Source: a virus. From it: a stretch of DNA of 64,000 nt. The DNA is taken from the IMG/VR virus record IMGVR_UViG_3300045988_132725; one strand, written 5' to 3'. How positions within the stretch are numbered: position 1 is the first letter of the stretch; each line of letters starts with the position of its first letter. The position numbers and the translations under genes were made by a program. Under the pieces are notes generated by a model that was not told the DNA's origin, ran no database searches, and was given only the letters and a program-made list of their open reading frames with translations. Of this stretch, positions 2,324 to 40,659 are shown piece by piece.

Positions 2324-3366
2324 TATATCCAGTTTTGTAATTGAATGAATTGTTTGGGGTTGAACTTGCGTAGATAATCCTTTAAGCTGGCCTTGGAAAC
2401 AACTTGCTCTGGGTTGGCGGCTAACCAAGCCTCACGTTTGGCGATCTCCTCTTGCATCATTTGTTTTGCGGATAAAATCTTTTGTTTCTCTCCCTCCTCA
2501 TATTTCAATGCCTCCGTATTTCTCTCGAACACTGCGTTAATCGTGTAATTCTGGACATTTGAGAATCCTATGGCTTGTGGTAAATCATAGGATAGTATTA
2601 GGATGGTATTGACCTCAAACATATCGAGGTATGGGGATTGACATGTTACCACGTCCTTATGCTTCAATATCTTTATCAAGTCCATGACCTCTTTTGTCGG
2701 ATATACGTCTTGGTAGGGACTGACTATCTTCCCGGTGATGGTGATATTATAGTCCCCTCCAGAGATATATTCCTTACGTGTGAGATCCCGACCTTGTACC
2801 TTGGTCAACAGGATATTCTTTTGCTCGGAGAGCTTGATAACCGCATGTCCATCGAAGAATTGATAATTTTCGCTTCCGTCCTTTATTTGAAGCTGTATGT
2901 AATGCCTGATAGGAGTTCCATCCAATCCTTTCTCTTGCAGTAAATTGACTGGGGTATTAGCTTCGACCAGTTTCTTGATATTGCTATCCCTGTCAAATAG
3001 ATTGTATCTGGTTTGAAGTTTGTAGTCTGGGGAACCGTTAACGATCTCATCAGCCATTCTTAATGCCGCTTGTTTTGTCCTCCAAGTAACAATACGCTCT
3101 ATGATCCTTGCTTTTTTCTGAAGGTAGGCTTTTGGGTTTCTAGCTAGATCAATGATATTGATTCGAGGGATATAGGTAAGAACCGATGATGGGTCTTTGC
3201 CTTTATATAATTCCCCCAATACCCTTTTTATGGCATGATTCTCGTAGTCCTTGGGTTTAAGTGGGGGGAGTGTTTTTTTCGATAACTCGTTGGCTACGCT
3301 TGCGAATATCCTTGGTGTTGGATTTTCAGGTTTAATCGTAGATTCTATGATACTTAGTTTTTCCAT
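2323..3366 (-). CDS. tail-module protein directly after tape measure, function not recognisable
   Basis: 347-aa ORF. Its start overlaps the tape-measure stop at 3366. Confidence 0.4.
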   Translation of the reverse strand: MEKLSIIESTIKPENPTPRIFASVANELSKKTLPPLKPKDYENHAIKRVLGELYKGKDPSSVLTYIPRINIIDLARNPKAYLQKKARIIERIVTWRTKQAALRMADEIVNGSPDYKLQTRYNLFDRDSNIKKLVEANTPVNLLQEKGLDGTPIRHYIQLQIKDGSENYQFFDGHAVIKLSEQKNILLTKVQGRDLTRKEYISGGDYNITITGKIVSPYQDVYPTKEVMDLIKILKHKDVVTCQSPYLDMFEVNTILILSYDLPQAIGFSNVQNYTINAVFERNTEALKYEEGEKQKILSAKQMMQEEIAKREAWLAANPEQVVSKASLKDYLRKFNPKQFIQLQNWI

Positions 3367-6260
3367 TAGCTGTATGATATTTCAAAATCCTTTACTGCGT
3401 CTATCATTACTTGCGTTACTTTTTCTTTGAAGGTCTCCATATCCTCTTCGTTGGTTGAGTTTACATTGATACTTCCAATGAGGGATTGGATATTGATAGT
3501 GATTATCTTGGGTTGTGTTCCGGAAGTCTTGCCTACTCCGCTATAGGCGCTATTTCCACCATTACCATTACCTCCATTTTCTGCTCCACTTGCATCTCCT
3601 TCTATTCTTATATCTTTCGTGGAGCGAAGCTCGGACATGTCAAATAAATCCTTGATATCACCTAGCGCTGAGATCAATGGATTCAAGAACCATGATTTTA
3701 CCCCAGAGTTTCTAAGTGCGGTCATTGCGGATTTGGACGTGTTCGTTGCTGCTTCCTTGTCGTTATATACGATATCGCCAGATGGCGCTATTATATGATA
3801 CCCTAGCGATTTTTGGCTTAGATCGTAACCCGTGAAATTCTTGATGAAGTCAATGGCCTCGTTGCTGCTTACAGGTAACCCACTTGCTATCTTTAGCTGA
3901 AGGTCCATGATCTCTTTTAATGAGCCAAGCCCTATATCGATGGATTTATTTACGGCCTCCGTGAATTGCTTTGTCTTGCTTTCCGTATCTGCGTTAAGTT
4001 GGTTGACGCTGTCTAATATAGTTACTCCCCTTGACCTTTCCTCATCGGTGAGATTGATATATGGACCGAAATTGTATTTGTAGGATTTCTTCTGGTTTTC
4101 CATGTCATCGATAAGATCAATATAAACCGACTTGATCTTGTCTTTCCCTAAATCCTCCATTCCAATGGATGCCATGAGATATTGGTTGGCTATTTTCGAT
4201 CCTTCCAAGTCTCCCCGTTCGGACATAGCTCTTATGTATTGCGGATAGACGCTACTTTCCCCATTGAACATCATGTTCTTTGTTCCAAGATCATATCCTA
4301 GAAAATCATAGTATTTTGTTCCAGAAAGGGCTTTCTTTGCGTTATTGTTTCCATTATCGGAGCTGTCATCGTCCTTATCCTTGAATACGGGCAGCAGATT
4401 TTCATATTCTTTCTTTATTGACTCGCTTACCGCTTGCGTTGTCTTCCCTGCCCCATATACACCTATTCCCAAAGAGGCTAAAGCGGTAACGGCTGCGGTT
4501 ACTATTGCTGGTATTCCTCCTATGGCCGCTAGCAATCCTCCTCCAATAGCAGATCCAACCCCACCGGCTCCTCCTATGGCGGTTGTCAATGCGCTAGCCC
4601 CTCTAGCGGTATTAAAAAGACCTTTTGCCATAGGAGTTATGGCCGCTACGATTTTTGATATCTTCTTGAATAGTACCCCTCCAATTACAAGATATTCTAA
4701 CCAATTCCAATTTTCGGATACCCATGTAGATACTCCAACCAATGCTTTTGTTAATGCGACCAATCCTGTGGCTACATCTTTGAACATCTGAGCTGTTCCC
4801 GGTTGCTTCAATAATAAGACCAGATCGTCCAGTCCTTCCTTGATGACAGGGTTATAAGCCTCGAACACGGTCATACCTGTTTCCGTGAACTGAGACGTGA
4901 CCTTGTCCCATTTCCCCTTGATGGTATCTTGTTTTTTGGAAGCTATGTTATCAGCCAGACCTCCGGAGTAGATTGAATTTTGTATTAATTCCGGAAGTTT
5001 CATCAACTCGGCGAATACGTTGTTAGCAGCGTTTCCACCGATTTTATCAAATAGTTTGGTCAGGTCTTGTACGCTGGCATCGTTAGACTTGAGCTGGGAG
5101 AATATGTCAAATAACGATCTTAATTTGGTCTTTCCTGTTGCCTTGTCTAGCTCATATAGCTGGATGTTGTATTTTTTCAAGACCTCAGTTCCCTTTTTTG
5201 TAGGATTCAATAATCTTGTCATCATCGCTCGTAAGGCTGTACCCGCAACCGTACCTTTCAATCCGGCGTTTCCTAGCGCCCCGATAGCGGCAGTCGCTTC
5301 ATTGAAAGAGATCTTGGCCATACTCATCATGGGAGCTGCGAATTTCATGGCTTCACCCATTTCCAATACATTGGTATTTGTGCTGGTGGTAACGCTCGTA
5401 AGGATGTCCGCTATCTGTGGCATTTTGGAGCTATCCAACCCATAAGCGGTCTGGATGTTCGTTACTATATCTGCCATCCTATCAAGTGGAGCGTCACCAA
5501 TGATAGCGAGATTGGCGATAGGTTTTATGGAATTATTGATATCCTCGATATTTAAGCCTGCCATACCTAGGTATTTGGCTGCTCCCGCAACCTCGGTCGT
5601 AGTGAACTTTGTATCGACACCAACCTTACGGATATTCTTTGACATATCAGAGAATCGCTGATCGAACGTGGTGATGTCCTTGTCCGTGGCTTTAAGGATA
5701 CTCTGCACCGTTGTCATGATATTCTCATATTCAGCTGCATCCTTTACAATACTCATGGTTCCCATACCGATAGCGGCGGCACCAATCATGTTCGGGAAAG
5801 GGAATCCTGCTGCGTACATGACATCCGCAGCCCCAAATAACCCTTTCGCCCCGCTGCCAAAGCCACGTGCAGCTCTGTTGTTGCCATTTTTAGGGACATA
5901 GTTTCTATTTTTCCTACCCGGAATAGAGGTTGTTGATCCGGTCGTGGTATTGGTCGTTTGGTTAACCTTGGTATTGATAGTGACCGTTTTTCCCTTGATC
6001 GTGTTGATGTGAGATTGAAGGTCTTTTAACTCTTTCTTTATGCCATTATCAATACTGAATTTAATCTTCTTAGGTCTTGTGCCAGTGATTCTATTGAGAC
6101 TTACAAAAGCAGCGTTGACTTTTCCAATCTCTTTTCTCAATGTTTCTAGGGAGGTTATGATGGGAGGGATAGTCCTTTGAATCGTGCTTTGAAAATCACT
6201 GATATTTTTAGAAGCTTGCGCCCCGTTGATGTCTATATTGTACCTGACGTTGTAATCCAT
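3366..6260 (-). CDS. tail tape measure protein
   Basis: 964 aa and the largest ORF of the tail block. It has a long helical Ala/Gly/Met-rich core (AAKYLGMAGL, GEAMKFAAPMM, ALGNAGLKGTVAGTALR) and a Gly-rich hydrophobic segment. It sits right after the chaperone/frameshift gene. Confidence 0.9.
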   Translation of the reverse strand: MDYNVRYNIDINGAQASKNISDFQSTIQRTIPPIITSLETLRKEIGKVNAAFVSLNRITGTRPKKIKFSIDNGIKKELKDLQSHINTIKGKTVTINTKVNQTTNTTTGSTTSIPGRKNRNYVPKNGNNRAARGFGSGAKGLFGAADVMYAAGFPFPNMIGAAAIGMGTMSIVKDAAEYENIMTTVQSILKATDKDITTFDQRFSDMSKNIRKVGVDTKFTTTEVAGAAKYLGMAGLNIEDINNSIKPIANLAIIGDAPLDRMADIVTNIQTAYGLDSSKMPQIADILTSVTTSTNTNVLEMGEAMKFAAPMMSMAKISFNEATAAIGALGNAGLKGTVAGTALRAMMTRLLNPTKKGTEVLKKYNIQLYELDKATGKTKLRSLFDIFSQLKSNDASVQDLTKLFDKIGGNAANNVFAELMKLPELIQNSIYSGGLADNIASKKQDTIKGKWDKVTSQFTETGMTVFEAYNPVIKEGLDDLVLLLKQPGTAQMFKDVATGLVALTKALVGVSTWVSENWNWLEYLVIGGVLFKKISKIVAAITPMAKGLFNTARGASALTTAIGGAGGVGSAIGGGLLAAIGGIPAIVTAAVTALASLGIGVYGAGKTTQAVSESIKKEYENLLPVFKDKDDDSSDNGNNNAKKALSGTKYYDFLGYDLGTKNMMFNGESSVYPQYIRAMSERGDLEGSKIANQYLMASIGMEDLGKDKIKSVYIDLIDDMENQKKSYKYNFGPYINLTDEERSRGVTILDSVNQLNADTESKTKQFTEAVNKSIDIGLGSLKEIMDLQLKIASGLPVSSNEAIDFIKNFTGYDLSQKSLGYHIIAPSGDIVYNDKEAATNTSKSAMTALRNSGVKSWFLNPLISALGDIKDLFDMSELRSTKDIRIEGDASGAENGGNGNGGNSAYSGVGKTSGTQPKIITINIQSLIGSINVNSTNEEDMETFKEKVTQVMIDAVKDFEISYS

Positions 6261-6383: not shown

Positions 6384-6931
6384 TTAAGAAAAAAGCCTAA
6401 CTGATGATGTGGCTATGACTTGGTTATGTAACCACAAAGCATCGTTGGCGATCAATGCGAAATCTTCGTCTGATATCGTGGATAGATCTACGCTGGGAAA
6501 GTAATGACGGACGAGGGCTATATATTGTCTTAGCCACTCATCACCCCTTACTTGCCAGCGATCGAGAAATTTGCGACCTTGGCTTGGCGAGAGCCAATGA
6601 TATTAACCAGTTTTGCGGACAAGCCATATAAGAACAATGAATCATCGTCCACTAGTTCCTTATCTCCTTGGATAAACGTGTCACGTGCCAATGATCGGAC
6701 GGCTGCGATCTCATCCTTCTTCTGTAATTGTGCGAACTTACTGAACGCAACGAAATCCGGTTCTCTGAAATAAGCGATATACACTTCCTTGTCATCGTAC
6801 TCGTCACCAAATACTACGATAGGATAGACTCTTTTGTTTTTCTTGGGGTCTTGTTTTCTGATTTCCTCTAAGGTTTTCTTGATAGTTTCTTCTTGTGCTA
6901 ATGTAAGCTCTTTGCTTTCTTCCATTTCCAT
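6384..6931 (-). CDS. tail assembly chaperone, -1 frameshift fusion product (gpGT-like)
   Basis: After a -1 slip at A_AAT_TTC (6566-6572) the frame stays open for about 61 codons (KFLDRWQVRGDEWLRQYIALVRHYFPSVDLSTISDEDFALIANDALWLHNQVIATSSVRLFS) to TAA at 6384-6386. Confidence 0.65.
6548..6931 (-). CDS. tail assembly chaperone (zero-frame product, gpG-like)
   Basis: 127-aa acidic ORF immediately upstream of the tape measure. It carries a slippery heptamer near its 3' end. Confidence 0.7.
   Translation of the reverse strand: MEMEESKELTLAQEETIKKTLEEIRKQDPKKNKRVYPIVVFGDEYDDKEVYIAYFREPDFVAFSKFAQLQKKDEIAAVRSLARDTFIQGDKELVDDDSLFLYGLSAKLVNIIGSRQAKVANFSIAGK
6566..6572 (-). promoter_or_regulatory. -1 programmed ribosomal frameshift slippery site A_AAU_UUC
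   Basis: Zero-frame codons are GCA AAT TTC. The heptamer fits X_XXY_YYZ and lies 6 codons before the zero-frame stop. Confidence 0.65.
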
Positions 6932-6996
6932 AATATATACTTTGTTTGGTTGTTTATGAAAGAATAGAGGGGATTTTAGAAAAAAGTTTGATTAAA

Positions 6997-7043
6997 ATAT
7001 ATCTCTTGACTAGTCATGCTGTATTCCTAATCAAGAGATATAT
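6997..7043 (-). terminator. 13-bp-stem terminator closing the glycosyltransferase moron
   Basis: ATATATCTCTTGA (6997-7009) pairs with TCAAGAGATATAT (7031-7043), 5 nt after the stop at 7049. On the minus strand it is followed by a TTTAATCAAACTTTTTT tract. Confidence 0.7.
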
Positions 7044-7048
7044 GTAGG

Positions 7049-7504
7049 TTATTTTATTTCCTTAGATATACTTAAACGATATTGAAATTCATCTACCAAT
7101 CTTTTAATGGCTTGCTCCATAGGATCTTCTATATCTAAAATATCTTTCTCGTAAATGATTTTATCAGAGATATCAGATAACATCCAAGTTCCATATGGTG
7201 CTACACATGCTGAATGGGAGAAATAGCCCGTTAACATTGTGTTATCAATAAGAACAAATGGATGGAATAAAATGGTATTACATTCAAATAGCTTGAATCT
7301 GTTTTGATCTTCAGCTTTTAAAGAATTTTTTATTGACTTAAACGCTTTGATATTAGTTCGTAATTCTATAAGTAAATCTTCTTCACTATATTCCCCTTTA
7401 CGAAGAATACCCGCATAACCATTAAAATGATCATTATGAAACTTTACTAATTCTTCAGTAGGAAAAATTACATTAACTTCTGACTTGTCGTTCTTTTGAA
7501 TCAT
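7049..7504 (-). CDS. hypothetical 151-aa protein, second gene of AT-rich moron
   Basis: ORF overlaps the 3' end of the glycosyltransferase ORF by 32 nt in another frame. No motif recognised. Confidence 0.6.
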   Translation of the reverse strand: MIQKNDKSEVNVIFPTEELVKFHNDHFNGYAGILRKGEYSEEDLLIELRTNIKAFKSIKNSLKAEDQNRFKLFECNTILFHPFVLIDNTMLTGYFSHSACVAPYGTWMLSDISDKIIYEKDILDIEDPMEQAIKRLVDEFQYRLSISKEIK

Positions 7505-8900
7505 TCTCTTGCAAGTAATCTCCTGTTTTAGAATAATAAGGATAGATTATTGCGTCTAACCATATCCGTTTACAAGCTTTTTTCAATAAATGTGTTGAAC
7601 CATAGTTCTCATGCGGTGTAACTACTTTTATCATATATCTAGAATTTAAAGGTTTTACAATTTCTTTTTCTCCAATATCACAGAGGAAACTTATGCAGAT
7701 TTTTTTCCAGCTATATTTTTTTGTTAGCATTTTTTTTAGGGATGTAGCATATTCTTTCCATTTTGATTGTTGATTATTGATAGTTTTAATGGCTTCACTG
7801 ACATTTTCCAAGTCTTGTTGCGAAAATATTGTTTTTCCATCTCCTTTTATTTCTATTGGGTATACATATTTAGCGGCTTGGTTGGCAAAACTATCATCTA
7901 AAAATTCATATAAACCAGAATTTTTGGAAACAACCAAAGGAATACCAGCAGCAATAGCTTCCCAGCCAGCTAAACCAAAACCTTCATGGATAGAAAGCAT
8001 AAGTGCGACAGTACTTCGTTTTAGCAAAGTAAAAATTTCTTCTCGATCCTCCTTATATGGGACTATATTATACAACGATTGACCTTCTCCAAGATTAAAA
8101 ATGTTTAATTGACTTGAAATATGATTTTTAATATCTTGAATCTTTGATTTATCAAGATCTTTTTCTAATCCTACTAGTTCTACTTTAGAGTCGTGATAGA
8201 AAGCTCCTTCTCCACATTCTAGAATAGCTTTCTTTAAAGCGCAAACCGTTAGGCTAAATAATTTAATATAGTCTGTGTTATATTCTAGTCTGCCTGTACA
8301 TACCCCTATAAATTTATTAGGTAATTTTTGATTGCTTTTAATTTCAGGCAATCCCGGTATGAACATCTTACATTTGCTTTTCTGTTCATCATCTACAAGA
8401 TCCATTGCTGATTTATACAATTTAGGACCTACACCAAAAATAATATCGGCATTACTAAATATTATTTCTTGCCTTGATTTTTTATAAGATGATTTGTAAG
8501 GGTCAAAATTAATTTTAAACGGTTCATAGCTTTCATATGACATATGATGGAAAGCTATGAATTTACTGTTATACTCTGATTGAAACTTACATTCATAGGC
8601 AATTTTTCCTGAAATTACATCATGCCCAATAAAGTAGTTCTTAGCATCTTCTCCATTAATAGATTTTAGAATGAATGGAACAAAGGCATCACTAAACTCT
8701 TGTGACTTTAGGTTTATAATTTTAATACCTTTGCCTTCTGCGTCTTCTAATCCTGCTTTGTCTATATTTAATACTACACAATAAAGAGATAGATCTTCCA
8801 AATCCAATTTTGCTAGCGAACACAGTAAATCATAATTGAAAGAATTTATGCCTCCTTTTTGAGTACCCCATGAGTCTGTCAAAGAAATAATGTTAACCAT
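7473..8900 (-). CDS. GT-B fold glycosyltransferase (family-4-like) with about 70-aa C-terminal extension
   Basis: Contains the E-x7-E region HEGFGLAGWEAIAAGIPLVVSKNSGLYEFL and the N-terminal MVNIISLTDSWGTQKGGINSFNYDL. Track ORF starts at 8954, but a TATATTTG -7 box lies inside that extension, so the ATG at 8898-8900 is preferred. Confidence 0.75.
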   Translation of the reverse strand: MVNIISLTDSWGTQKGGINSFNYDLLCSLAKLDLEDLSLYCVVLNIDKAGLEDAEGKGIKIINLKSQEFSDAFVPFILKSINGEDAKNYFIGHDVISGKIAYECKFQSEYNSKFIAFHHMSYESYEPFKINFDPYKSSYKKSRQEIIFSNADIIFGVGPKLYKSAMDLVDDEQKSKCKMFIPGLPEIKSNQKLPNKFIGVCTGRLEYNTDYIKLFSLTVCALKKAILECGEGAFYHDSKVELVGLEKDLDKSKIQDIKNHISSQLNIFNLGEGQSLYNIVPYKEDREEIFTLLKRSTVALMLSIHEGFGLAGWEAIAAGIPLVVSKNSGLYEFLDDSFANQAAKYVYPIEIKGDGKTIFSQQDLENVSEAIKTINNQQSKWKEYATSLKKMLTKKYSWKKICISFLCDIGEKEIVKPLNSRYMIKVVTPHENYGSTHLLKKACKRIWLDAIIYPYYSKTGDYLQENDSKERQVRS

Positions 8901-8922
8901 GATACTTAGATTTAAGAATAAA

Positions 8923-8930
8923 CAAATATA
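8923..8930 (-). promoter_or_regulatory. Bacteroidota-type -7 promoter box (TATATTTG) for the moron
   Basis: Plus-strand CAAATATA equals minus-strand TAtaTTTG, 22 nt upstream of the ATG at 8900 and downstream of the tube-gene terminator. Confidence 0.5.
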
Positions 8931-9042
8931 GTGAATAGATGATAGATTATCCATGAATTTTCATTTATTCGACATGGTTATGTTTTATAACATGGAAATT
9001 TGTTTTGTTTATAGATTTGTAGTCTATCAGAGGGTTATAAAT

Positions 9043-9076
9043 AAAAAAAGGGGAAACAAAGTATATCTGTTTCCCC
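9043..9076 (-). terminator. rho-independent terminator after tail tube gene
   Basis: GGGGAAACA (9050-9058) pairs with TGTTTCCCC (9068-9076). On the minus strand it is followed by TTTTTTTAT. Confidence 0.75.
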
Positions 9077-9093
9077 TTAATCTACTATTATAA

Positions 9094-9540
9094 TTATGTC
9101 CTAGGATCGATTCCTCCCGGATTAAGATCGAATTCCTTAGAAAGATCCGTGTCATCTTGTTTTGCTTCCATACCATCCTCAGAGAAGATACACTTCTGTA
9201 AGGTGGTTGTCACTGTTCGTCCGTCATCTGGATGTGCGAAATGAACGATCAAATCAAACTCTCCAAGTCCCATCAACGTACCATCCGGAGAAGCTTCTTG
9301 GAACATTACCTGCGTGGCGTAATCAAGCTCGATGGAGGCTGTGTATGTCCAATTGCCGTAACCTCGTGAGATTGGTTGGGAACCGATACCATAGTTGCTT
9401 TCTACTTTTCTTTTCCTTTCCCATTTTACGGCCTTGATTCCATAGATCGCCTCGGACGATGAGGCGAACCCGAAATTGACCTCGATCATGGACCAATCAT
9501 AAGCACGGCCATTAATAAGTGTCGTAGTACTATCTGCCAT
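9094..9540 (-). CDS. tail tube protein
   Basis: 148-aa ORF immediately downstream of the sheath-sized gene, the classic sheath-tube order. Confidence 0.65.
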   Translation of the reverse strand: MADSTTTLINGRAYDWSMIEVNFGFASSSEAIYGIKAVKWERKRKVESNYGIGSQPISRGYGNWTYTASIELDYATQVMFQEASPDGTLMGLGEFDLIVHFAHPDDGRTVTTTLQKCIFSEDGMEAKQDDTDLSKEFDLNPGGIDPRT

Positions 9541-9551
9541 ATGTGTTGTTT

Positions 9552-10835
9552 TTAAGCGTTAGTTAAAGCGAATCCTTCCTCTACGATGATCTTTGATGTC
9601 ACGCCTACTGGAACGATTGCGTATGTTATCTTTAATGTATCGGTCAATAGAATGTTTTGGTTTGAAGAGACCAATACGCTATATCCGGAGATCTCGCTAT
9701 TACCTTCCATCGTGCTTAGGATGTTCTTGACAACATTTTGGTATTTCTTGATCTCGATCTCAGCCAGATATCCGGTTTTAGGATTAACCAGTACAGGTGA
9801 GTTCAAATAGGGAAGGAGGGCGTTTCTAATCGCACGCCTTGATTTATCGATGGCTCTGTTTCTGGCGATGGTCCTATAATCACCATTGGAGCAAGTCCTG
9901 TCTTTTGAGAAATAAGTACCATTTGCTCTTCCTGCGTATTTGATAGGGAAGACATATCCTTTTTCCTCAATCTCGTCAATTTGTGCTGGAGCCAATGCCT
10001 CGAATTGCAACATGCTGACAAAATCCTCTCCAGTGTCGTTAAGTTCTATATTACCGAACCCGAACTCGATCTCGCTCATATGTTTGGAAGTCAGGTTGAA
10101 TTGGTTTACCCAAGCGATAGACTCACACACCTTTGCTTCCGCTACACAACCCAAGGCCACGCCTACGCAACCGATAGAAGAGTGCTTTGGGTTCTCGATT
10201 TGCATTTGTCTTAATAGCTCGGATTTACCTTGCCCTAACAATGCTGTCACACGTGGAAAATCTCCTATGCAAGATGGGATCTTTACCAAATCAATGGTCT
10301 TGATAGATCCCGTGGAATCTGCGGATGTGGAGTTAGCTGTTAATAATACTGATAACGGACGGTGCTCGTTAGCTAGCTCTTCGGCGATCGTATTGATATC
10401 GGCCACTAGATTTAGCGAATAATCATCTTCTGAGCTGGATGCTACAGACCAAATGTTTTGTGATGTCCAGATTCCTAGCTGCTTAATATCTCCTTTAGCT
10501 ACAGACTGGATGGTCTTGATTGCGTTCCAGTTCTTTGAGCAATCGGCGAACATTACATATAATGACCCATCCGGTTTCATGCGGAAAAACTCTGAGATAT
10601 GAAAATAAGGGATACCATAGAGAAAGTTTGATTTATCTTTTTCAAATTCAGTAATACCTAATGTCACAGCCTCGTTAACGGAGAACAACTGGATAACGTC
10701 CCCGATTTTTACGTTAGAGGGCATCTGCGTATCGGTTGGGATGTCAAAGATCAATCCGCTGATATGATCGTTACCAACAGAGGTTGGTGTGAGATTGCCG
10801 TCTTTTCTGATGAAAGATACTGTTCCTATTGCCAT
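9552..10835 (-). CDS. contractile tail sheath protein
   Basis: 427-aa ORF preceding the tube gene. Called from size and position; no catalytic motif is expected. Confidence 0.65.
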   Translation of the reverse strand: MAIGTVSFIRKDGNLTPTSVGNDHISGLIFDIPTDTQMPSNVKIGDVIQLFSVNEAVTLGITEFEKDKSNFLYGIPYFHISEFFRMKPDGSLYVMFADCSKNWNAIKTIQSVAKGDIKQLGIWTSQNIWSVASSSEDDYSLNLVADINTIAEELANEHRPLSVLLTANSTSADSTGSIKTIDLVKIPSCIGDFPRVTALLGQGKSELLRQMQIENPKHSSIGCVGVALGCVAEAKVCESIAWVNQFNLTSKHMSEIEFGFGNIELNDTGEDFVSMLQFEALAPAQIDEIEEKGYVFPIKYAGRANGTYFSKDRTCSNGDYRTIARNRAIDKSRRAIRNALLPYLNSPVLVNPKTGYLAEIEIKKYQNVVKNILSTMEGNSEISGYSVLVSSNQNILLTDTLKITYAIVPVGVTSKIIVEEGFALTNA

Positions 10836-21027: not shown

Positions 21028-21845
21028 GTCAAATTGTATTTGGATTTGATGCTTGATGATATGTTTTTCATGGATTGAATAAGATTCTTATCCACGGTGA
21101 AGTATGGGTGATCCTCTCCGAATATAGCTCCACCCTTCGCTAGGTTTTGCTTGAACACAGGATTAACTGCTTTATCTATAATAGAACTTATATCGGGAAC
21201 ATCCATATAGTTGGGTCTCGTAAATGATTCCACCAAGTAACAACGGCATCTCCAATCGATAGGGGGGATCAGCCATTCAGGAAATTGAGATTTAGGATAG
21301 CTAAGTCCTTCCAGCGCACGATGAGAGTCACGAACACGCTCGTCCCCTTGTGTCATAAACATAAGGGTTGTCTCCTCTGGTAAAGTTATCCACCATGCTG
21401 CTATAAATGAAGCGTAGTCTATGTCCTTATTTTCGGTCTTGGCGTATACATTATTATATAGATAGAAGATCTCTTCCGGACCGCTATCCTCGTCTTGCTC
21501 CTCTATATCCATATATACTTGAGTCTCCTCTGCCGTGGCAAAATCAATCAAGTTGTCCAAAGCCGCAACGAGAGCTTTCCTTCTCTCGATCTCTGAGGGC
21601 GTTAGATATGTCTCGTTGTGATTTCTTACTATATCCAGCGCCTCGTTAAAATCTATACCAAACCTTCTCACGCAATGTCCAAAAGCGAACATGGCCCGAG
21701 CCTCGACAATGTCTTGAAACTCCTCTAGGTCTATGGTCTGGTTGTCGAATTTATCTAATAGTTGCTCGAACAAGAACAATAAATACTCGTACTCTTTCTC
21801 GGTCTCATCATTAATTTTAGTCTCATCGAATATCTCGTCTTCCAT
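21024..21845 (-). CDS. head morphogenesis protein, Mu F / SPP1 gp7 family
   Basis: Motif GDERVRDSHRALEGL...PPIDWRCRCYL. Confidence 0.75.
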   Translation of the reverse strand: MEDEIFDETKINDETEKEYEYLLFLFEQLLDKFDNQTIDLEEFQDIVEARAMFAFGHCVRRFGIDFNEALDIVRNHNETYLTPSEIERRKALVAALDNLIDFATAEETQVYMDIEEQDEDSGPEEIFYLYNNVYAKTENKDIDYASFIAAWWITLPEETTLMFMTQGDERVRDSHRALEGLSYPKSQFPEWLIPPIDWRCRCYLVESFTRPNYMDVPDISSIIDKAVNPVFKQNLAKGGAIFGEDHPYFTVDKNLIQSMKNISSSIKSKYNLT

Positions 21846-23184
21846 TCATGACCTCCTGTAAATAGTTCGCTACGCTACTGCTGCTCCTTCTCCTATAACG
21901 TCTTCTGGATGCAGGGGCAACAGTACCCATTGATCCACCAGCCACCACGTTATCCTTATCATCGACTTTACCGTCATCATTTATATCGTTCCATCCAGCG
22001 GGATTATTAAACTGCTTCTTTACAACAACACCAAATTCCTTTGCGATCTCGTCTGGTTCTATCTCATATTTATCTGAAAGAAAATCGTAAAGATCTATCT
22101 TGCTCTCAACGCTCATCTCCAATCCTCCGGAATATTTAAATTCCAGTCCATTCTCAATATATCCCATAGCTACTAGCCGTGGAATAATCTCCTCGTTCAT
22201 GGCATTCTCAATATATTCCCGATAGACCTTGATGCGGTCTCGGAAAATATCTTGGTGGGCTTTAGTTGATCCTACATAGGATTGTGTCGCTCCAGCCATA
22301 GACTCAGAACCTAGAATCAAATTTGACACCTCGGCGTTAACTAGCTCGATAAGGCTCGTATAAATCTTCTCGCTATTGGACATAGTAAAAGCCTTGATGT
22401 CTATGTCATCATTTAATCCCGTCACGATAACACGATTGGTTGCGGCAGATGCGATATCGTTGGCTAGTCTATTTCGATCTCCAAGATTCTCACTCTCCGA
22501 TTTACCATGGATAATAGGTTGTCCATATGTATGGCTGAAATTTATGTAGTTAGCCAACGTGAATTTCTTGGCGAGAATCAATGGAGTAGTGGCTGAGAAC
22601 AAGCCTAGATCACCAGAGTTTATAAGGATATAGTTCTTCTTATATTTAGGAGTCTCAAGGTCCCAATTAGGAAGCCATATGCCTTGACGTTTCAATACGG
22701 TCTTTTGTTCAGGCAATACATTGCGGCGTTCGATGAGATTCACGTCATTCAGTTTTCCTGTAATAGGATCGATTGTTGGATTAATCTCAATCAACGTATA
22801 ACCATACAATTTAGATTCAGCAATGCCTTTGATGATCTTGATGAATTGGCTCCCTTGTATTTTCTTCGTAGCCTCCACATCACGGACATATTGACCATTA
22901 GCATTTTGTCTTGCCAACATATATCTTTCTCCGATAATCTGGGACTCCAATGTCTCTAAGACACTTCTTATGTGAGCGTCCTGTTGTACACATGCCTCAT
23001 ATAAGTCGATCAATCTTGATCTATCATCCAAGATCACTCCCTTGACAACTTGAGAGCGAGTCGATTTATATCTGCAATTCCTTTCGATCTCGGACACATA
23101 TTCCTGTATGGTCTTTTTGCTTGTCCGGAAGATACTCTCTAAGGTTTGCGAGTCTATTTTCCCTTGATTTATATTCTTGTCCAT
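21823..23184 (-). CDS. portal protein
   Basis: 453-aa ORF, first in the late operon and upstream of the Mu-F-like gene. Basic C-terminal tail (RRRYRRRSSS). Confidence 0.6.
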   Translation of the reverse strand: MDKNINQGKIDSQTLESIFRTSKKTIQEYVSEIERNCRYKSTRSQVVKGVILDDRSRLIDLYEACVQQDAHIRSVLETLESQIIGERYMLARQNANGQYVRDVEATKKIQGSQFIKIIKGIAESKLYGYTLIEINPTIDPITGKLNDVNLIERRNVLPEQKTVLKRQGIWLPNWDLETPKYKKNYILINSGDLGLFSATTPLILAKKFTLANYINFSHTYGQPIIHGKSESENLGDRNRLANDIASAATNRVIVTGLNDDIDIKAFTMSNSEKIYTSLIELVNAEVSNLILGSESMAGATQSYVGSTKAHQDIFRDRIKVYREYIENAMNEEIIPRLVAMGYIENGLEFKYSGGLEMSVESKIDLYDFLSDKYEIEPDEIAKEFGVVVKKQFNNPAGWNDINDDGKVDDKDNVVAGGSMGTVAPASRRRYRRRSSSSVANYLQEVMNGRRDIR

Positions 23185-25750: not shown

Positions 25751-26527
25751 ATGGAGAATAAAGTAGTATTATCAAAAAATAGTAACAGTGATGAAATCAA
25801 AGCGTATTTCTTAGAGGTGTCCAGATTATCCAAATCTAATGAAGAGTTTCCTGTGGATTTGGATGATGTATGGCCTCTTGTCTATGAAAGAAAAGACAAC
25901 GCTGTTAAGTCTTTAATCAAATATTTTATACAAGGTATTGATTATCAATTAATCCGCCAAAAAGCGGATCAGCCAACAGGCAGTAAATATGTAAATAAAT
26001 ATTTCATAACATCATCATGTCTTGAATTTTTTATCGCTCGCAAGATTCGTACTGTCTTTGAAATCTATCGGCAGGTTTTTCATAAAGCAGTTATCAACTT
26101 GTCCTTGCCTAATTTTGAGGACCCTGTTGAAGCCGCCTTAGCTTGGGCTGAACAATATAAAGAGAAACAATTAGCACTTCAGAAAATAGAAGAGGATAAA
26201 CCCAAGGTTGAGTACTATAACGAGATGGTAGAGAACCGTGATTACTTTACCATATCTTCTATTGCGATTGAGCTGAAAGTGACAGCAGCCAGTTTGAATA
26301 AGTTCCTCTTGGATACTGGATGGTTTACTAAAAAGTTCAGCATTATTATCGCCGATGATGAGCACAAGAGTTGGCAATGTGATGTTCCTTATTATCAAAC
26401 CAAAAAGGATGGAACAAAATACGTAATGGCATCTCTAGTAAGATGGAGTAAGAAAGGCAGAGAGAATATCATTAAACTTTGGAAGTCTAACAATCAAAAA
26501 CAAGAAAACGATGTTGAATTATATTAA
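25751..26527 (+). CDS. antirepressor-type protein with KilAC-like C-terminal domain
   Basis: EEDKPKVEYYNEMVENRDYFTISSIAIELKVTAASLNKFL. Confidence 0.55.
   Translation: MENKVVLSKNSNSDEIKAYFLEVSRLSKSNEEFPVDLDDVWPLVYERKDNAVKSLIKYFIQGIDYQLIRQKADQPTGSKYVNKYFITSSCLEFFIARKIRTVFEIYRQVFHKAVINLSLPNFEDPVEAALAWAEQYKEKQLALQKIEEDKPKVEYYNEMVENRDYFTISSIAIELKVTAASLNKFLLDTGWFTKKFSIIIADDEHKSWQCDVPYYQTKKDGTKYVMASLVRWSKKGRENIIKLWKSNNQKQENDVELY
26189..26252 (+). repeat. DNA-level direct repeat, copy 1 (KilAC-coding segment)
   Basis: gaagaggataaacccaaggttgagtactataa...gattactttacc recurs at 27468-27530 with a few substitutions. Confidence 0.7.
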
Positions 26528-27758
26528 GAATATCATAAAGAGAGGGAGTTTTGAGTTCGCTGGAAACAGCGTAATGTATATAATCAACAGCGTAGACAAT
26601 ATGATGTGGTTCAGATTGTCGGATATATGCTCCGCTATAAATGTAACGGATTGGTGTAATCCTAAACACAAGAACTACTTGATGGGTAAGGGCAAGCTGG
26701 ATAATAAGCGAAGGATTTTATTCACCCAATCCAAAGTGTACGCTTGGGGAATCAACGAAGAGGATGTTGTTTGGTTATTGGAGGAATATGCGGAGACCAA
26801 TTCCACTAGAGCTGAGTGTGCCTCTAGACTATTGAACATTATCAAAAAATTTATTGAGAGAGAAAAAGGAGCGGAGATGAAAGTGGAAGGACCAAAAGAA
26901 ACAAATAATGTATCAAGCTATAAAAAAGAACTAACTAATTTTCCGGGTATATTTAATTATAATGGGAACAATATAACCTTTAAGACTGTCAACAACACAG
27001 TGATGGTCAATGCTACAGAAATGGCAAAAGGTTTTGACAAAAGATTTCCTGATTGGATACGATTGAAGTCCACAAAAGAATTTCTATATGTATTGTCTAC
27101 CATAAAAAATAAGAATAATAGTCGTCGTGCAGATCTGCACGACGGTATTCAATATGTTAGTTATAAAGAACTTAAATTCGTTATGTCAGGCGCAAAAGAA
27201 AATCATAGCCTTATTTTAATTTCTCAAGGAGGTCAAGCGCAGGGAACGTGGATGCACGAGGATGTAGCTTTGGAGTTCGCTCGTTGGTTAGCTCCTGAGT
27301 TTGCTATCTGGTGTAACGACAAGATTAAAGAGTTAATCACAACAGGAACTACATCATTATATAACAACGTTAATTTTGGCGGTTTCCCCATCCCTCAGAA
27401 ATTCTCTGATGCTCTTATTTTATCCGCTCATCTACAGCAGAAGGTAGAGGAACAGGAAGCCAAGATCGAAGAGGATAAACCGAAGGTGGAATACTACTCT
27501 GGTATGGTAGAGAATCGAGATTATTTTACCACTACGACTATCGCTACGGAATTGAGAACGACATCTCAAGTATTGAATCAATTCTTATGTAACAAGGGGG
27601 TATTGACCGGAAAATCTGGTAACTGGAAAGTAACAGATGAGCATCAAACCTTATTGTCACCTTCTCCGTTCAAATCAATCATTAGATGGAATCATGAGGG
27701 TCGAACATTGATACACCAGCTTTGGGAAGAAAAAGTAGAAGAGTTAGTAGAAGCTTAA
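26511..27758 (+). CDS. Bro-N / KilA-N / KilAC multidomain antirepressor-type protein
   Basis: KilA-N-like GTWMHEDVALEFARWLAPEFAIWCNDKIKEL and a second KilAC copy, EEDKPKVEYYSGMVENRDYFTTTTIATEL. Confidence 0.6.
   Translation: MLNYIKNIIKRGSFEFAGNSVMYIINSVDNMMWFRLSDICSAINVTDWCNPKHKNYLMGKGKLDNKRRILFTQSKVYAWGINEEDVVWLLEEYAETNSTRAECASRLLNIIKKFIEREKGAEMKVEGPKETNNVSSYKKELTNFPGIFNYNGNNITFKTVNNTVMVNATEMAKGFDKRFPDWIRLKSTKEFLYVLSTIKNKNNSRRADLHDGIQYVSYKELKFVMSGAKENHSLILISQGGQAQGTWMHEDVALEFARWLAPEFAIWCNDKIKELITTGTTSLYNNVNFGGFPIPQKFSDALILSAHLQQKVEEQEAKIEEDKPKVEYYSGMVENRDYFTTTTIATELRTTSQVLNQFLCNKGVLTGKSGNWKVTDEHQTLLSPSPFKSIIRWNHEGRTLIHQLWEEKVEELVEA
27468..27530 (+). repeat. DNA-level direct repeat, copy 2 (KilAC-coding segment)
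   Basis: See copy 1. Confidence 0.7.
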
Positions 27759-33376: not shown

Positions 33377-34204
33377 ATGGGAACGATGATTGACAAAATG
33401 GAAGATCCCGATTTCTCTCGGATCATTAAAGTTAGAGAGGAAAATGATAAGCAGTTGGTGTCTGCGAGAGAGTTGTATGAATTTATAGATGGCAAGGAAC
33501 GATTCACTAGATGGATCGGACGCATGTTTGAGTATGGTTTTGTGGAACATGTTGATTATGAGGCGGTGAACATTTTCGTACAGTGCCAAAACGGTATTGG
33601 TGGTACCAATAAGATGGATTATGCTCTGACAATTGATTGCGCCAAGCAAATAGCGATGCTTCAAAGAAACGCACAAGGACAACAAGTAAGAGCGTATTTT
33701 ATTAAATGTGAAGAGTTACTAAAGGAGAAGTTGAAGAAACAAGAGCTTGTTCTTCCGAAAGATTATCCTTCGGCGTTAAGAGCCTTGGCCGATGCTGAGG
33801 AAGAGAAAATGAAGGCGCTGGAGATAGCAAAGGAAAATGAGCTGAAGGTGAAGGAGCGTGACAAGTATATCAAGTCTAACCATCACAAGGTCGATTTCTA
33901 TGATGATTGCGTATATGAGGATGATGAGACCACTTACGACATGAATGGAGCGGCAAAGATCGTAATGGCCAAATATAACAAGGGAAGAAACACGATGATG
34001 GATATTCTCAGATTCTACGGGGTATTGATGCAGGACAATCTTCCTTACGAGAAATATATAAGATCCGGCTATTTTACCGTTAAGATCACGAAACCAAAAG
34101 ATAAGTTCGGGAACCCTAAGACTTGTAAGTCTACTATCGTGACAAGTAAAGGTGTTACGTTCCTGAAGAAGACGATAGACAAATACTATAGTGAGTTCTC
34201 GTAA
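33377..34204 (+). CDS. antirepressor (AntA/Rha-like N-terminus plus KilAC-like C-terminus)
   Basis: ARELYEFIDGKERFTRWIGRMFEYGFVEHVDYEAV is AntA-like. The C-terminus is lysine-rich and resembles the other paralogs. Confidence 0.5.
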   Translation: MGTMIDKMEDPDFSRIIKVREENDKQLVSARELYEFIDGKERFTRWIGRMFEYGFVEHVDYEAVNIFVQCQNGIGGTNKMDYALTIDCAKQIAMLQRNAQGQQVRAYFIKCEELLKEKLKKQELVLPKDYPSALRALADAEEEKMKALEIAKENELKVKERDKYIKSNHHKVDFYDDCVYEDDETTYDMNGAAKIVMAKYNKGRNTMMDILRFYGVLMQDNLPYEKYIRSGYFTVKITKPKDKFGNPKTCKSTIVTSKGVTFLKKTIDKYYSEFS

Positions 34205-34211
34205 AAAAATA

Positions 34212-34246
34212 AGCCCCATCTACTTGCTAGCGGATGGGGCTTTCTT
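34212..34246. terminator. bidirectional rho-independent terminator
   Basis: AGCCCCATC (34212-34220) pairs with GATGGGGCT (34233-34241), flanked by an A-run upstream and TTTCTT downstream. Sits between convergent genes. Confidence 0.75.
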
Positions 34247-34334
34247 GTGGATTTATGTGAAGTAAAGTCTAACTATTGCAAATGAGGCTTTTATATTAGT
34301 TCTTGAATGTATAAAAAGAAATGTTCTAGCAGAA

Positions 34335-35453
34335 TCAATCTTTTTCAGGCTTGATATGCTCTGATGGGTCAAGAGATCTTAACTTAAGTAAAAAACTAAA
34401 ATGTTCTTCTAATTCTTTACTTTTTTTTGTGTCTTCTATTTTAAATTTTTCGGTTGATTCTTTAAATTTCTTTATTGATTTTGTGATTTCTCTTCTAAAA
34501 CGAAGTAATGGAACAAATAAAGGGAAAAATAGTCCGCTAAAGATAGCAAAAGATATAGACGATATTAGAGCAAAAGTTTCATTGAAAATAAGTTCTTTGT
34601 CTAATAATACATTATATAAGATGGAAAGTATCGATATTGATAATAAAATCAGTGTAAAATGAATCAAATTGAAGTAATGAGTAAATATACTAGCTCCTTT
34701 CTTTTTAAATTTAAAAATAGCTCCTATAGCCAAGACAATAATGGCTAATACATAAACAATTGTCATAGACCATGATCCTAAAAAAGGTAATAATCCAATA
34801 ACAAAAGTAGATAATATTAAAGAAAAGAGTATTTTAATACAAGTCGTAAGTTTAAATTCATATAATATATCGCCATTGGAAGGATTTCTTTCCTTTATAG
34901 AAATCCAATAATAACTCCATATATATAACCAATATATAAAAGATGTAATAGAAACTAAACTTACTGTATCAATGCACCATTTTATAGCCCCCCAAAAACA
35001 ATCAAATATAAAAATAAATATACAAAATAAAAATGAATAAAAGAAAGAAGACAAAAATTCAGGTGCTTGGGTTATATTTTTGTATAAATTATCAACATTA
35101 TCCCTTAAAGTAAAATAACTTGTTTGATATTCAACAGTTAAGAACTGTAGCTCGTTTACCAAGCTAAGCATTTCTTGTTTACGTGGATTATTTTCTTCTT
35201 TTGATTTAGCAATAGCACTATAGAGAACTTTATAATTACGCTTTTTTAAAACATCTACAAAATTATCCCCTTCTCTGCTTAAAAACGCTTTAGTCCGTTT
35301 GCAAATAATTAACAATAAATTTTGTATAAAATTATTGCTGTTTTTCTCGATGTTGTCAGATCCAAAAAAACATAAAACAGCTAAAGTCATTATTGAACCT
35401 AAAAAAGTTGCACTATTTCCACTAAGAAAAGTGCATAATAGTACTAGAAGCAT
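34335..35453 (-). CDS. polytopic membrane protein (about 7-8 TM, about 110-aa cytoplasmic loop, charged C-tail)
   Basis: Hydrophobic runs FLSSFFYSFLFCIFIFIF, ITSFIYWLYIWSYYWISI, ILFSLILSTFVIGLLPFLG, IVYVLAIIVLAIGAIF, FTLILLSISILSILY and ISSISFAIFSGLFFPLFVPLL. Very AT-rich. Confidence 0.65.
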   Translation of the reverse strand: MLLVLLCTFLSGNSATFLGSIMTLAVLCFFGSDNIEKNSNNFIQNLLLIICKRTKAFLSREGDNFVDVLKKRNYKVLYSAIAKSKEENNPRKQEMLSLVNELQFLTVEYQTSYFTLRDNVDNLYKNITQAPEFLSSFFYSFLFCIFIFIFDCFWGAIKWCIDTVSLVSITSFIYWLYIWSYYWISIKERNPSNGDILYEFKLTTCIKILFSLILSTFVIGLLPFLGSWSMTIVYVLAIIVLAIGAIFKFKKKGASIFTHYFNLIHFTLILLSISILSILYNVLLDKELIFNETFALISSISFAIFSGLFFPLFVPLLRFRREITKSIKKFKESTEKFKIEDTKKSKELEEHFSFLLKLRSLDPSEHIKPEKD

Positions 35454-35456
35454 GTC

Positions 35457-36017
35457 TCAATTAATGATTTTGTGTGATGAAAGTAAAAGGCTTTGAAACT
35501 GTTTCTTTAATGCTTCAGTGTTTTTAGTGTCATTAAAATTTGCGAAAGCAGAATGTTCTTCTGCTCCTAATTCTCTTCTATATTTATTGTCATCACCGAT
35601 TGAAAAATGAAATTCAGGTTTTAGTTCGCTGTCTAGTTTATAAACTAGAACCTGCCCTTCAGCTATTTTATCCTTTATTAAAGGACTAATATTTGTTGCT
35701 AAGTCTTCTATAAAGCTATGTTCTTTTTTTTCTAAAATAATGGAAAGTTTTCCTCCTCTATTTAAAAAATGAGTAATTTGGTCGTATAGTGGCTGCATAG
35801 GGTTATAATCCCCTTCTGTAACTTCTTTATCTACTTTTTCAGCAAAACTAGTTCTGAAGAGAGAACCTTCACCGCAAAGCATATCGATTTCATTGGAGTG
35901 CCTAAAAATCTCTTTCATTATTATAGCATTATGTGATCTGTCAGCATTCCACATTAATTCATTTCTTTTGCTGTTTGCAATAGTCTCTATCTCGACATTA
36001 TACTCTACTAGACTCAT
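35457..36017 (-). CDS. hypothetical soluble 186-aa protein, first gene of the cassette
   Basis: 3-nt gap to the membrane gene. FHFSIGDDNKYRRE...ANFND is only reminiscent of a PLD HxKxxxxD...GSxN layout (Ser replaces Lys). Not a confident family call. Confidence 0.6.
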   Translation of the reverse strand: MSLVEYNVEIETIANSKRNELMWNADRSHNAIIMKEIFRHSNEIDMLCGEGSLFRTSFAEKVDKEVTEGDYNPMQPLYDQITHFLNRGGKLSIILEKKEHSFIEDLATNISPLIKDKIAEGQVLVYKLDSELKPEFHFSIGDDNKYRRELGAEEHSAFANFNDTKNTEALKKQFQSLLLSSHKIIN

Positions 36018-40260: not shown

Positions 40261-40340
40261 TATTTTACGTATTAATATGTAGTGTATAAACGTTAAATAC
40301 GTGTTAATGAATGTATTTTCCGTTTTTAATCTAAAAAGCC

Positions 40341-40388
40341 GTTACATCTTTGCACTGTGATCAAGAAACAACGGTTACTTAGATCACA
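40341..40388 (+). repeat. conserved promoter-like box plus hairpin element, copy 1
   Basis: gttacATCtttgcActgtgatcaagaaaCaa...agatcaca, with TGTGATC (40356-40362) pairing GATCACA (40382-40388). Confidence 0.55.
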
Positions 40389-40421
40389 AAGTTCTTTGTC
40401 TTATTGATAACAGCGTAAAGT

Positions 40422-40613: not shown

Positions 40614-40659
40614 ACAAAAACCAATTAATATTATTAAACAACTAATTAACATTCTTTTT

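Follow-up and report, generated by a model that had tools for sequence, protein, structure and literature searches.

One gene, split by a deletion, at the tube–chaperone junction

The 64,000-nt viral sequence IMGVR_UViG_3300045988_132725 (the window, by which we mean this whole stretch) carries a cassette between its tail tube and tail chaperone genes. This insert is about 2.06 kb long and consists of one gene, for a glycosyltransferase (GT) with a C-terminal phospholipase D (PLD)-like domain. The cassette reading frames and the flanking tail genes all lie on the minus strand (Table 1). An earlier note on this sequence had placed the cassette correctly between the tube-like and chaperone-position genes and had seen two genes in it, a 475-aa GT and an orphan 151-aa partner. 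The two open reading frames (ORFs) do share the 32-nt overlap that was described, but a two-gene cassette is refuted because relatives have a single in-frame ORF in its place.

The nearest database protein, P0001, is a 636-aa protein encoded in one frame, with 98% identity to the GT ORF and 100% identity to the 151-aa ORF. The frames of the window diverge from it at ...SKTGDYL. Likewise, four independent contigs (L001–L004) have an uninterrupted 1,911-nt ORF in a sheath–tube–GT–chaperone–tape measure context. At the DNA level these contigs read TTGCA-CTATC-AGAG where the window reads TTGCA-AGAG, and besides this 5-bp gap only one substitution was found in 2,998 bp. The deletion site is 5 nt upstream of ATG 7504, in a non-homopolymer, non-slippery stretch. 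The program-listed ORF at 7473–8954 (493 aa) corresponds to the form that begins at ATG 8900 plus 18 codons. We favor ATG 8900 as the start because the -7 box-like motif lies inside the 18-codon extension, the Pfam match starts at residue 6, and homologues align from that methionine; the intact protein, with this start, is most likely 618 aa long.

Intact forms of 618 or 636 aa are present on about 1,300 contigs (704 + 445 + 150 + ...), including Parabacteroides distasonis chromosomes (WP_157355048.1 and UVS09903.1) and a Caudoviricetes metagenome-assembled genome (MAG), whereas the 475-aa piece is recorded on 7 contigs and the 151-aa piece on 11. Pattern scans for the break site recovered four viral and two metagenome contigs, all intact and too few to give an allele frequency. 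No match to the break-site pattern was found in the GTDB representative genomes, and the INPHARED phage records contained no DNA or protein match to the region, the GT, or the 151-aa ORF.

The identical 5-bp deletion is shared by at least three further assemblies that differ in run and pipeline (ENA, Logan, and JGI), namely L005 (ERR525726), L008 (ERR525729), and L006 (JGI 3300029101). Because of this recurrence and the non-homopolymer context, we regard the deletion as a real circulating allele. A sequencing or assembly artefact, with the gene intact in the real genome, would be in line with the other apparently split contigs, which reflect homopolymer errors, N-scaffolds, or contig ends, several of them (L009, L011, L012, and an extra break in L006) being clear artefacts with homopolymer indels or N-scaffolds; against the shared deletion and its context, this explanation has almost no chance of being correct.

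A split that is itself functional, through a programmed frameshift, translational coupling, or a split protein in which the GT works with a 151-aa partner, has very little more to recommend it. The ORF overlap, the fact that ATG 7504 is a native in-frame methionine (M486), and a contig (L014) truncated at the same pentanucleotide (TAT to TAA) would fit such an arrangement, as would some short homologues of the C-terminal region in which a membrane protein and a PLD-like protein come from two separate genes. However, the uninterrupted gene predominates among the contig records (roughly 1,300 versus about 10 to 20 with the split), the site is non-slippery, and the break severs strands 1 and 2 and an invariant motif from the remainder of one compact domain. 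In addition, the L014 coincidence is weak, as the lesion lookup was limited to about 45 codons upstream of M486. The earlier suggestion of one frameshift-joined protein or a coupled pair was therefore right as to one protein, while a 5-bp deletion takes the place of programmed frameshifting or coupling. Nor is the junction at the A-rich stretch CAAAAGAAC where it had been sought, since the break lies elsewhere, between 7510 and 7509. A programmed frameshift at CAAAAGAAC was rejected on the grounds of the single-frame relatives and the deletion at a non-slippery site. Overall, we are nearly certain that the two ORFs belong to a single gene and that a real 5-bp deletion has split it. For annotation, the lesson is that a GT listed next to a hypothetical protein can be one gene carrying a frameshift.

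Table 1. Features of the cassette, its flanks, and the alternative inserts of related contigs
Feature	Sequence	Position	Strand	Details
N-terminal gene fragment, 475 aa	window	7473..8900	-	463 native + 12 out-of-frame residues (QENDSKERQVRS), then stop
C-terminal gene fragment ("151-aa ORF")	window	7049..7504	-	100% identical to P0001 residues 486-636
5-bp deletion site (CTATC)	window	7509..7510	-	codons 482-483, 636-aa numbering
GT4-conflict domain, residues 6-402	window	7695..8885	-	PF20706, E=1.9e-66
First ~40 residues of PLD-like domain, on GT fragment	window	7512..7631	-	strand 1, helix, strand 2, conserved "RIWLDAIIYPYY" motif
Terminator-like hairpin and T-run after tube gene	window	9048..9078	-	13 pairs, dG -21.3 kcal/mol, z -6.1
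Cassette terminator-like hairpin, then T-rich tract	window	6997..7043	-	17 pairs, dG -22.4, z -6.9
TATATTTG, -7-box-like motif	window	8923..8930	-	22 nt upstream of ATG 8900; consensus match only
CCCTCT, upstream copy	window	9029..9034	-	insertion junction relative to empty site
CCCTCT, downstream copy	window	6966..6971	-	homology to the backbone restarts at this copy in every variant
Tail tube-like gene, 148 aa	window	9094..9540	-	phrog_4579 "tail protein", 5.5e-9
Sheath gene	window	9552-10835	-	DUF2586 / phrog_907; tube gene comes after
Chaperone-position gene, 127 aa	window	6548..6931	-	phrog_19076, 8.5e-10; weak DUF6848 match
Tape measure gene, 964 aa	window	3366-6260	-	PhageMin_Tail; chaperone-position gene lies upstream
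Mu-type portal	window	21823-23184	-	Portal_Mu, 2e-44
AntA/KilAC antirepressor-like genes	window	26511-27758 and 33377-34204		
tRNA-Glu(TTC), tRNA-Met(CAT)	window	58187-58258, 59009-59083		right-hand part of window
Three-gene insert	L031	5612-6936		PD-T4-9_A (3.5e-44), PD-T4-9_C (SecB-like, 3.4e-47), 105-aa ORF
NACHT NTPase, 663 aa	L020	2678-4669	-	opposite strand; NACHT 9.7e-8
308-aa protein	L023	5577-6503		no family match

The glycosyltransferase domain belongs to the GT4-conflict family

The GT domain matches the GT4-conflict model over nearly its full length (profile positions 2–382 of 385) with 225.1 bits (cutoff 26); no generic glycosyltransferase family in Pfam or NCBIfam scores above 40 bits. 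The 475-aa GT with an E-x7-E signature is confirmed, the motif reading HEGFGLAGWE in the window. Among the residues retained are W11, G16, G17, N19, N22, G92-H93-D94, H119, G203-R204, K213, E306, and E314. In an alignment of 32 GT4-conflict members, all 32 family-invariant columns are kept, and E306 is found in more than 90% of the members. The family-specific motifs WGxxxGGINxFN, GHD, and HHMxY are also preserved. As every invariant residue and family motif is kept, the catalytic domain looks active, judging by its sequence. A polymorphism lies beside the EX7E motif at position 7978 (gene nt 977, 636-aa numbering): the window has HEGFGL, in agreement with most contigs and with the family consensus, and P0001, the cluster representative, and L001–L004 have HEGSGL.

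GT4-conflict proteins have been predicted to act as counter-invader effectors (Kaur, Iyer, Burroughs & Aravind 2021, eLife; PMC8195603). This immune effector role was predicted in 2021 for bacteria as well as for corals, hemichordates, and cephalochordates, and the family is expanded in some marine invertebrates. Its members take the effector position in STAND, AP-GTPase, GreA/B-C, VMAP, and CATRA conflict systems, and STAND, AP-GTPase, TIR, caspase, VMAP, or CATRA components accompany them as fusions or in the same operon; the paper contains no biochemistry or phage-challenge data for them (PMC8195603). The window gene has the same kind of context, with the effector module beside a variable module in a hotspot where PD-T4-9 and NACHT genes are the alternatives. 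The best 120 homologues are mostly 600 to 750 aa long and carry diverse C-terminal modules, including STALD/SLOG, nSTAND5, TPR, and WD40. BLASTP of the C-terminal region against these 120 homologues revealed no shared C-terminal domain outside the 90%-identity cluster.

The C-terminal domain has a predicted PLD-like fold

The Pfam GT match leaves about 73 residues at the C-terminal end of the 475-aa ORF uncovered. An extra C-terminal segment of about 70 aa had been noticed before; it is indeed present, and it consists of a linker and the first ~40 residues of a PLD-like domain. This domain is about 190 aa long, and its remaining ~150 residues make up the "151-aa ORF," which is thus the rest of the same domain and not a separate protein. 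No Pfam, NCBIfam, or PADLOC model covers the C-terminal region. A word-indexed homology search with the 151-aa ORF returned no match despite the 100% containment of this ORF in P0001, and relatives were found only by exhaustive phmmer with the longer C-terminal region.

The phmmer search with P0001 residues 430–636 yielded 25 proteins (E 5e-47 to 9e-4), aligned from about query position 13 to the end. They are 200 to 390 aa long, with the domain at the C terminus, and their N termini differ. The N terminus of P0136 is a TIR domain of the CAP12/Pycsar type (PADLOC CBASS TIR effector, 5e-29; PycTIR, 1.6e-17), those of P0139 and P0142 are TIR_2, and that of P0159 is DUF4062. The N terminus of P0137 resembles a nucleoside deoxyribosyltransferase, but weakly and under the Pfam cutoff, while P0143, P0144, and P0155–158 begin with hydrophobic segments that were judged by eye to be membrane-like. 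Some homologues have almost no N-terminal extension. A profile search of genome contigs with the domain recovered a single Prevotella MAG locus. We found no description of a PLD-like/TIR defence domain in the literature.

An alignment of 27 sequences reveals the conserved motifs K/R-x-I-x-L-H-A-A-F-Y-P-K-Y, L-R, and A-I-x-R-Y-x-E-E, as well as L-P-x-F-P-x3-I-D-N/D-x5-G-H-Y-A-H-S-x3-A-P-x-G-L-W. The AlphaFold2 (AF2) model built from this alignment had a predicted local distance difference test score (pLDDT) of 84.8 and a predicted template-modeling (TM) score (pTM) of 0.83, with strands at residues 13–16 and 34–38 and a helix at 19–29; single-sequence AlphaFold of the 618-aa protein gave a pLDDT of 32 and was unusable. 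In a Foldseek search of the Protein Data Bank (PDB), every one of the 20 matches with E ≤ 1e-3 belonged to the PLD superfamily; among them were TrmBL2 (5box, 9e-6), FAM83/BJ-TSA-9 (4urj, 1.4e-5), PLDs from bacteria and humans, vaccinia F13, and SauUSI. Matches just past this cutoff (E 1.6e-3 to 2e-3) that also have the PLD fold are MITD1 (4a5z, 1.6e-3), PLD3, E. coli phosphatidylserine synthase, and Zucchini. Query-normalized TM-scores were 0.4 to 0.5. A BFVD search agrees, with PLD proteins as its top matches, and a profile search of PDB sequences gave only phosphatidylserine synthase at E = 0.59, which is a lead and not evidence.

The catalytic motif of PLD enzymes, HxK(x)4D(x)6G(S/T)xN, was sought in the 27 sequences, and no conserved histidine or lysine occupies the HxK positions. 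The strand–turn–strand equivalent to this HKD motif reads LPxFPxxxID(N/D)xxxxGHYAHS. On the basis of the model, we class the domain as a PLD-like fold and not as a PLD enzyme; lacking the catalytic motif, it is almost certainly not a phosphodiesterase. The break of the window allele falls at model residues 52–57, after strand 1, helix 1, strand 2, and the invariant A39, Y42, P43, and Y45 and before the other strands. The products of the window are consequently an intact GT domain followed by a PLD-like stub and 12 out-of-frame residues, and a 151-aa remnant without part of the fold core; neither fragment should form the PLD-like domain alone.

Where the context was readable, the homologues have neighbors such as AbiP2/DRT (3e-177), accompanied immediately upstream by a small protein that apparently spans the membrane, SMODS and SLATT_4 with diversity-generating retroelement (DGR) elements, AAA_15/21 ATPases, and a second TIR protein, and some homologues lie within or beside capsule loci. 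No signal-producing enzyme (CD-NTase, cyclase, or ThsB-type TIR) was found in the cassette or consistently beside the C-domain homologues; the SMODS gene in L042 is 4.4 kb off and next to its own SLATT partner. Three of the homologue loci may be two-gene units: L046 137–2850 pairs a small two-helix membrane protein with a PLD-like protein and adjoins AbiP2, L037 3393–5882 pairs a 525-aa protein of no known family with a membrane–PLD-like protein, and L054 2315–4273 pairs a TIR_2 protein with a TIR–PLD-like protein, with RyR-domain genes alongside.

The tube–chaperone site is a hotspot for cargo genes

The GC content is 0.295 to 0.32 over positions 7000–9000 and 0.41 to 0.46 in the flanks (overall about 0.30 versus about 0.42). 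The base composition, the hairpin folding, and the absence of the cassette from close relatives all bear out the view of a foreign, AT-rich, hairpin-bounded insert. For the strong terminator reported after the tube gene, there is a terminator-like hairpin at 9078–9048, a 13-pair stem with a T-run. Its sequence is specific to the cassette-bearing variant, and different hairpins occupy this place in empty-site and other-cargo phages. The hairpin at 6997–7043 is also present, with a stem of 17 pairs and not the 13 that had been claimed, and none of 200 shuffles folds equally well.

Six local proteins were mapped onto 18 IMG/VR contigs with a tube protein at 63 to 100% identity. The site is empty in 11 of the 18, with a tube–chaperone gap of about 115 nt (about 220 nt in L036, the most distant). 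The GT cassette is carried by four, three with an intact gene and one (L022) with a 10-bp deletion, and the remaining three (L020, L023, and L031) have other inserts, listed in Table 1. PD-T4-9, found in L031, was reportedly recovered by functional selection for anti-phage systems in E. coli. The check proposed earlier, whether tube and chaperone are adjacent in relatives without the insert, thus came out positive in 11 related contigs, and the cassette is not conserved in all relatives. It is very likely a moron, that is, hotspot cargo. Because the junctions are fixed, the cassette is present in some phages and absent from others, and the alternative cargo includes defence genes, this reading extends to a defence hotspot.

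Backbone homology with relatives stops at about 9094–9103, the tube stop codon, and restarts at about 6971 in all variants. The junctions are at the tube stop codon and at CCCTCT followed by ATTCTTTC. In the empty site of L025, ATTTATAACCCTCT and ATTCTTTCATAAAC are contiguous, whereas the window at the 9029–9034 junction reads ...ATAACCCTCT followed by GATAGAC.... A 6-bp direct repeat, CCCTCT, brackets the insert, and the empty site has one copy; the repeat may have arisen by chance, by a duplication resembling that of a target site, or as microhomology used in recombination.

TAnnTTTG is the Bacteroidetes -7 box consensus. The motif TATATTTG, previously called a -7 box, does lie at 8930–8923 on the minus strand; it is a consensus match only, and TAnnTTTG is not enriched in the window (80 occurrences versus 69 ± 8 expected). 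From its sequence, TATATTTG is a plausible Bacteroidetes -7 box and nothing beyond that. Of the signs expected of foreign cargo with its own transcription, the deviant base composition and the terminator-like hairpins are present, and the candidate promoter is a consensus match that is not enriched over chance.

The gene is disrupted repeatedly

In addition to the 5-bp deletion, three other lesions were observed. L014, a 615-nt contig, has TAT changed to TAA at codon 483, within the pentanucleotide that is missing from the window. The 10-bp deletion (TAAAAGCAAT) of L022 lies at about 5920–5930, at gene nt 615. In L015–L018 (e.g., L015 664–2593) and L053, an IS1595-family transposase and a P63C-domain gene replace the sheath gene, the tube gene, and the 5' third of the GT gene, which is truncated near gene nt 625; the 318-aa C-terminal ORF that remains is on 56 + 9 contigs. 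The lookup that we used detects only lesions within about 45 codons upstream of M486. We considered whether the two lesions in one pentanucleotide (window and L014) indicate selection for truncation and rejected this as unproven, given the ascertainment bias. That four lesions arose independently in a gene with otherwise more than 99% identity suggests that selection on it is relaxed or negative, which may reflect either neutrality or a cost.

Proposed function of the intact gene and of the window allele

Three lines of association connect the gene with defence: its membership in the GT4-conflict family, the partners of its C-terminal domain, and the defence cargo at the same site. The intact gene probably has an anti-phage defence role. 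We propose that the intact protein would be a prophage-encoded sensor–effector of the superinfection exclusion or abortive infection type. The PLD-like domain may bind a cue and/or drive oligomerization and would thereby activate the glycosyltransferase, which would use a nucleotide-sugar to glycosylate an invader or an essential host macromolecule, so that infection is blocked. By analogy, the PLD-like domain is a candidate sensing or oligomerizing module because its position matches that of the sensor domains of TIR and membrane effectors and because PLD folds without the HKD motif have binding roles. Since no signal-generating enzyme is in the cassette, the cue would be sensed directly or made elsewhere. 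As for the window allele, we think it quite likely that it has lost regulated function or become deregulated, being either a null or an unregulated GT; it is not lethal, since there are several samples in which lysogens with it persist. Taken as a whole, the explanation toward which we lean is a defence-hotspot cargo in which a sensor-like domain is joined to a GT effector and which is broken in the window.

Several points weigh against this explanation. The defence role rests on three guilt-by-association lines, we found no experimental work on any GT4-conflict protein in the papers searched, and PADLOC has no model for the GT, the 151-aa ORF, or full-length P0001. The fold call comes from a predicted model with moderate TM-scores (0.4 to 0.5), the promoter call for the cassette is a consensus match only, and the recurrent breakage could equally mean that the gene is dispensable junk cargo.

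Among the roles listed in the earlier note, exclusion or defence is favored, and glycosylation of a host receptor, a virion protein, or nucleic acid is less so. A role in lysogenic conversion, in which a cytoplasmic GT4 enzyme adds sugar to a lipid-linked capsule or lipopolysaccharide (LPS) precursor and the altered surface blocks the adsorption of other phages, is the strongest of these, although we consider it unlikely. GT4 enzymes commonly build surface glycans, the protein has weak NCBIfam similarity to exopolysaccharide, LPS, and bacillithiol GT4 enzymes, and the capsule-locus homologues and the moron character of the cassette are in accord with such a role. However, the GT4-conflict score exceeds those of the generic GT families, and the GT is fused to a domain otherwise found with TIR, DUF4062, and membrane N termini. 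Moreover, the cassette has no flippase, GtrA/B, or acceptor-pathway genes, and the alternative cargo at the site is intracellular defence. The GtrABC seroconversion system is likewise a phage-borne glycosyltransferase moron, but GtrB is a GT-A (GT2) enzyme with membrane GtrA and GtrC, whereas the window has a single GT-B (GT4) gene and no Gtr or GT2 Pfam match in the cassette. The layout had been judged from the start to be unlike GtrABC, and this holds.

Counter-defence or self-protection, for example by glycosylation of phage DNA or of a host immune component or signal, is improbable. The gene is phage-borne, nucleic-acid modification was on the earlier list of candidates, and phage GT-B enzymes are known to glycosylate DNA as a means of escaping restriction. 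Yet the C-terminal domain is shared with TIR and membrane effector-type N termini typical of host-side abortive infection, the neighbors of its homologues are defence genes in cellular contigs, and the cassette has no hypermodified-base pathway (hydroxymethylase etc.). Modification of the virion's own tail tube, sheath, or capsid proteins, known from some mycobacteriophages that have GT genes among their structural genes and for which virion protein glycosylation is reported, would suit a gene in the tail operon, on the same strand and directly after the tube gene, but is distinctly improbable given that phages with 97 to 100% identical tube proteins lack the GT or have PD-T4-9 or NACHT instead, that the insert is hairpin-flanked and compositionally foreign, that at least four independent disruptions are tolerated, and that the family and the fusion partners point to conflict systems.

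The favored sensor–effector reading can be compared with several known systems. With the GT4-conflict proteins described so far, the window gene shares a full-length hidden Markov model match, the EX7E and R/K residues, the WGxxxGGINxFN and GHD motifs, and the placement of the GT as effector beside a non-catalytic module that varies. It differs in being a lone gene in a phage tail operon, whereas the described members are in cellular genomes with partner components, and in its C-terminal PLD-like module, which is unmentioned in PMC8195603. With the CBASS Cap effectors, Pycsar PycTIR/PycTM, and Thoeris ThsA/B, it has in common a design in which exchangeable effector N termini are attached to one conserved, non-catalytic domain at the C terminus. 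In contrast to these systems, the shared domain has a PLD fold and is not SAVED, CARF, cNMP-binding, STING, or SLOG, and neither the cassette nor, with any consistency, the surroundings of the homologues include a cyclase or another signal-generating gene. The C-terminal domain of TrmB/TrmBL2, the DUF1669 domain of FAM83, and MITD1 are, like the domain described here, non-catalytic PLD folds without HxK...D and are its best structural matches, but there is no detectable sequence similarity, the TM-scores are about 0.45 to 0.5, and the partners and context are different.

Defence hotspots of prophages and satellites are known, as in the P2/P4 hotspots and the prophage-mediated defence of mycobacteriophages. 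The present site resembles the P2/P4 type in its fixed flanks, presence or absence of cargo, and alternative cargo, with an AT-rich, hairpin-bounded insert in the window; it differs in lying inside the tail-gene block of a Bacteroidales phage. To our knowledge, the tube–chaperone position has not been described as a defence hotspot in this host group. Neither the GT4-conflict family nor the idea of defence hotspots in prophages is new; the new elements are the fusion of the GT to an unannotated PLD-like domain, the effector partners of that domain, and the Parabacteroides tube–chaperone hotspot.

A broader and more tentative idea, which we put forward as a possibility and rate below the defence role proposed for the intact gene, is that the HKD-less PLD-like domain would define an undescribed family of small anti-phage sensors, each joined to an exchangeable effector of the TIR, DUF4062, deoxyribosyltransferase-like, membrane-spanning, or GT4 type. 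If so, the prophage protein might be the first tractable case of immunity executed by a glycosyltransferase, which would glycosylate a phage or host target on sensing infection, and its recurrent inactivation might reflect a fitness cost or autoimmunity. The association of the C-terminal domain with TIR and membrane effector-type partners may mark an unrecognized defence protein family. The gene is short, standalone, and abundant in human-gut Parabacteroides, with natural intact and broken alleles, and it offers a convenient test of glycosylation as an anti-phage effector. In addition, the tube–chaperone junction is a usable anchor for mining the defence cargo of Bacteroidales phages.

The carrier phage and other observations

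The carrier is a temperate Mu-portal-type myophage of Parabacteroides distasonis; its portal, antirepressor-like, and tRNA genes are given in Table 1 with the tail genes that flank the cassette. The tape measure protein is mosaic, with 72 to 88% identity in L015, L024, L026, and L034, whose sheath, tube, and chaperone are 92 to 100% identical.

A 189-aa protein encoded at 37196–37765 on the minus strand matches AID/APOBEC-like deaminase families above the Pfam cutoffs (APOBEC3 PF18771, 8.4e-7, 29.6 bits; also SNAD4, NAD1, and APOBEC_N) and has no PADLOC match. It is a lone minus-strand gene amid a plus-strand phage region. The 308-aa cargo protein of L023 was considered as a relative of this APOBEC-like protein, and this was rejected, as the two are not related.

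The ORFs of 372 aa (34335–35453), 186 aa (35457–36017), and 216 aa (43337–43987) have no Pfam or PADLOC match. They lie on the minus strand in other AT-rich islands of the window, which are found at 34001–36000 (29.5% GC), 40001–41000 (28.7%), and 43001–44000 (31%). These islands, at 34–36, 40–41, and 43–44 kb, may be additional morons.

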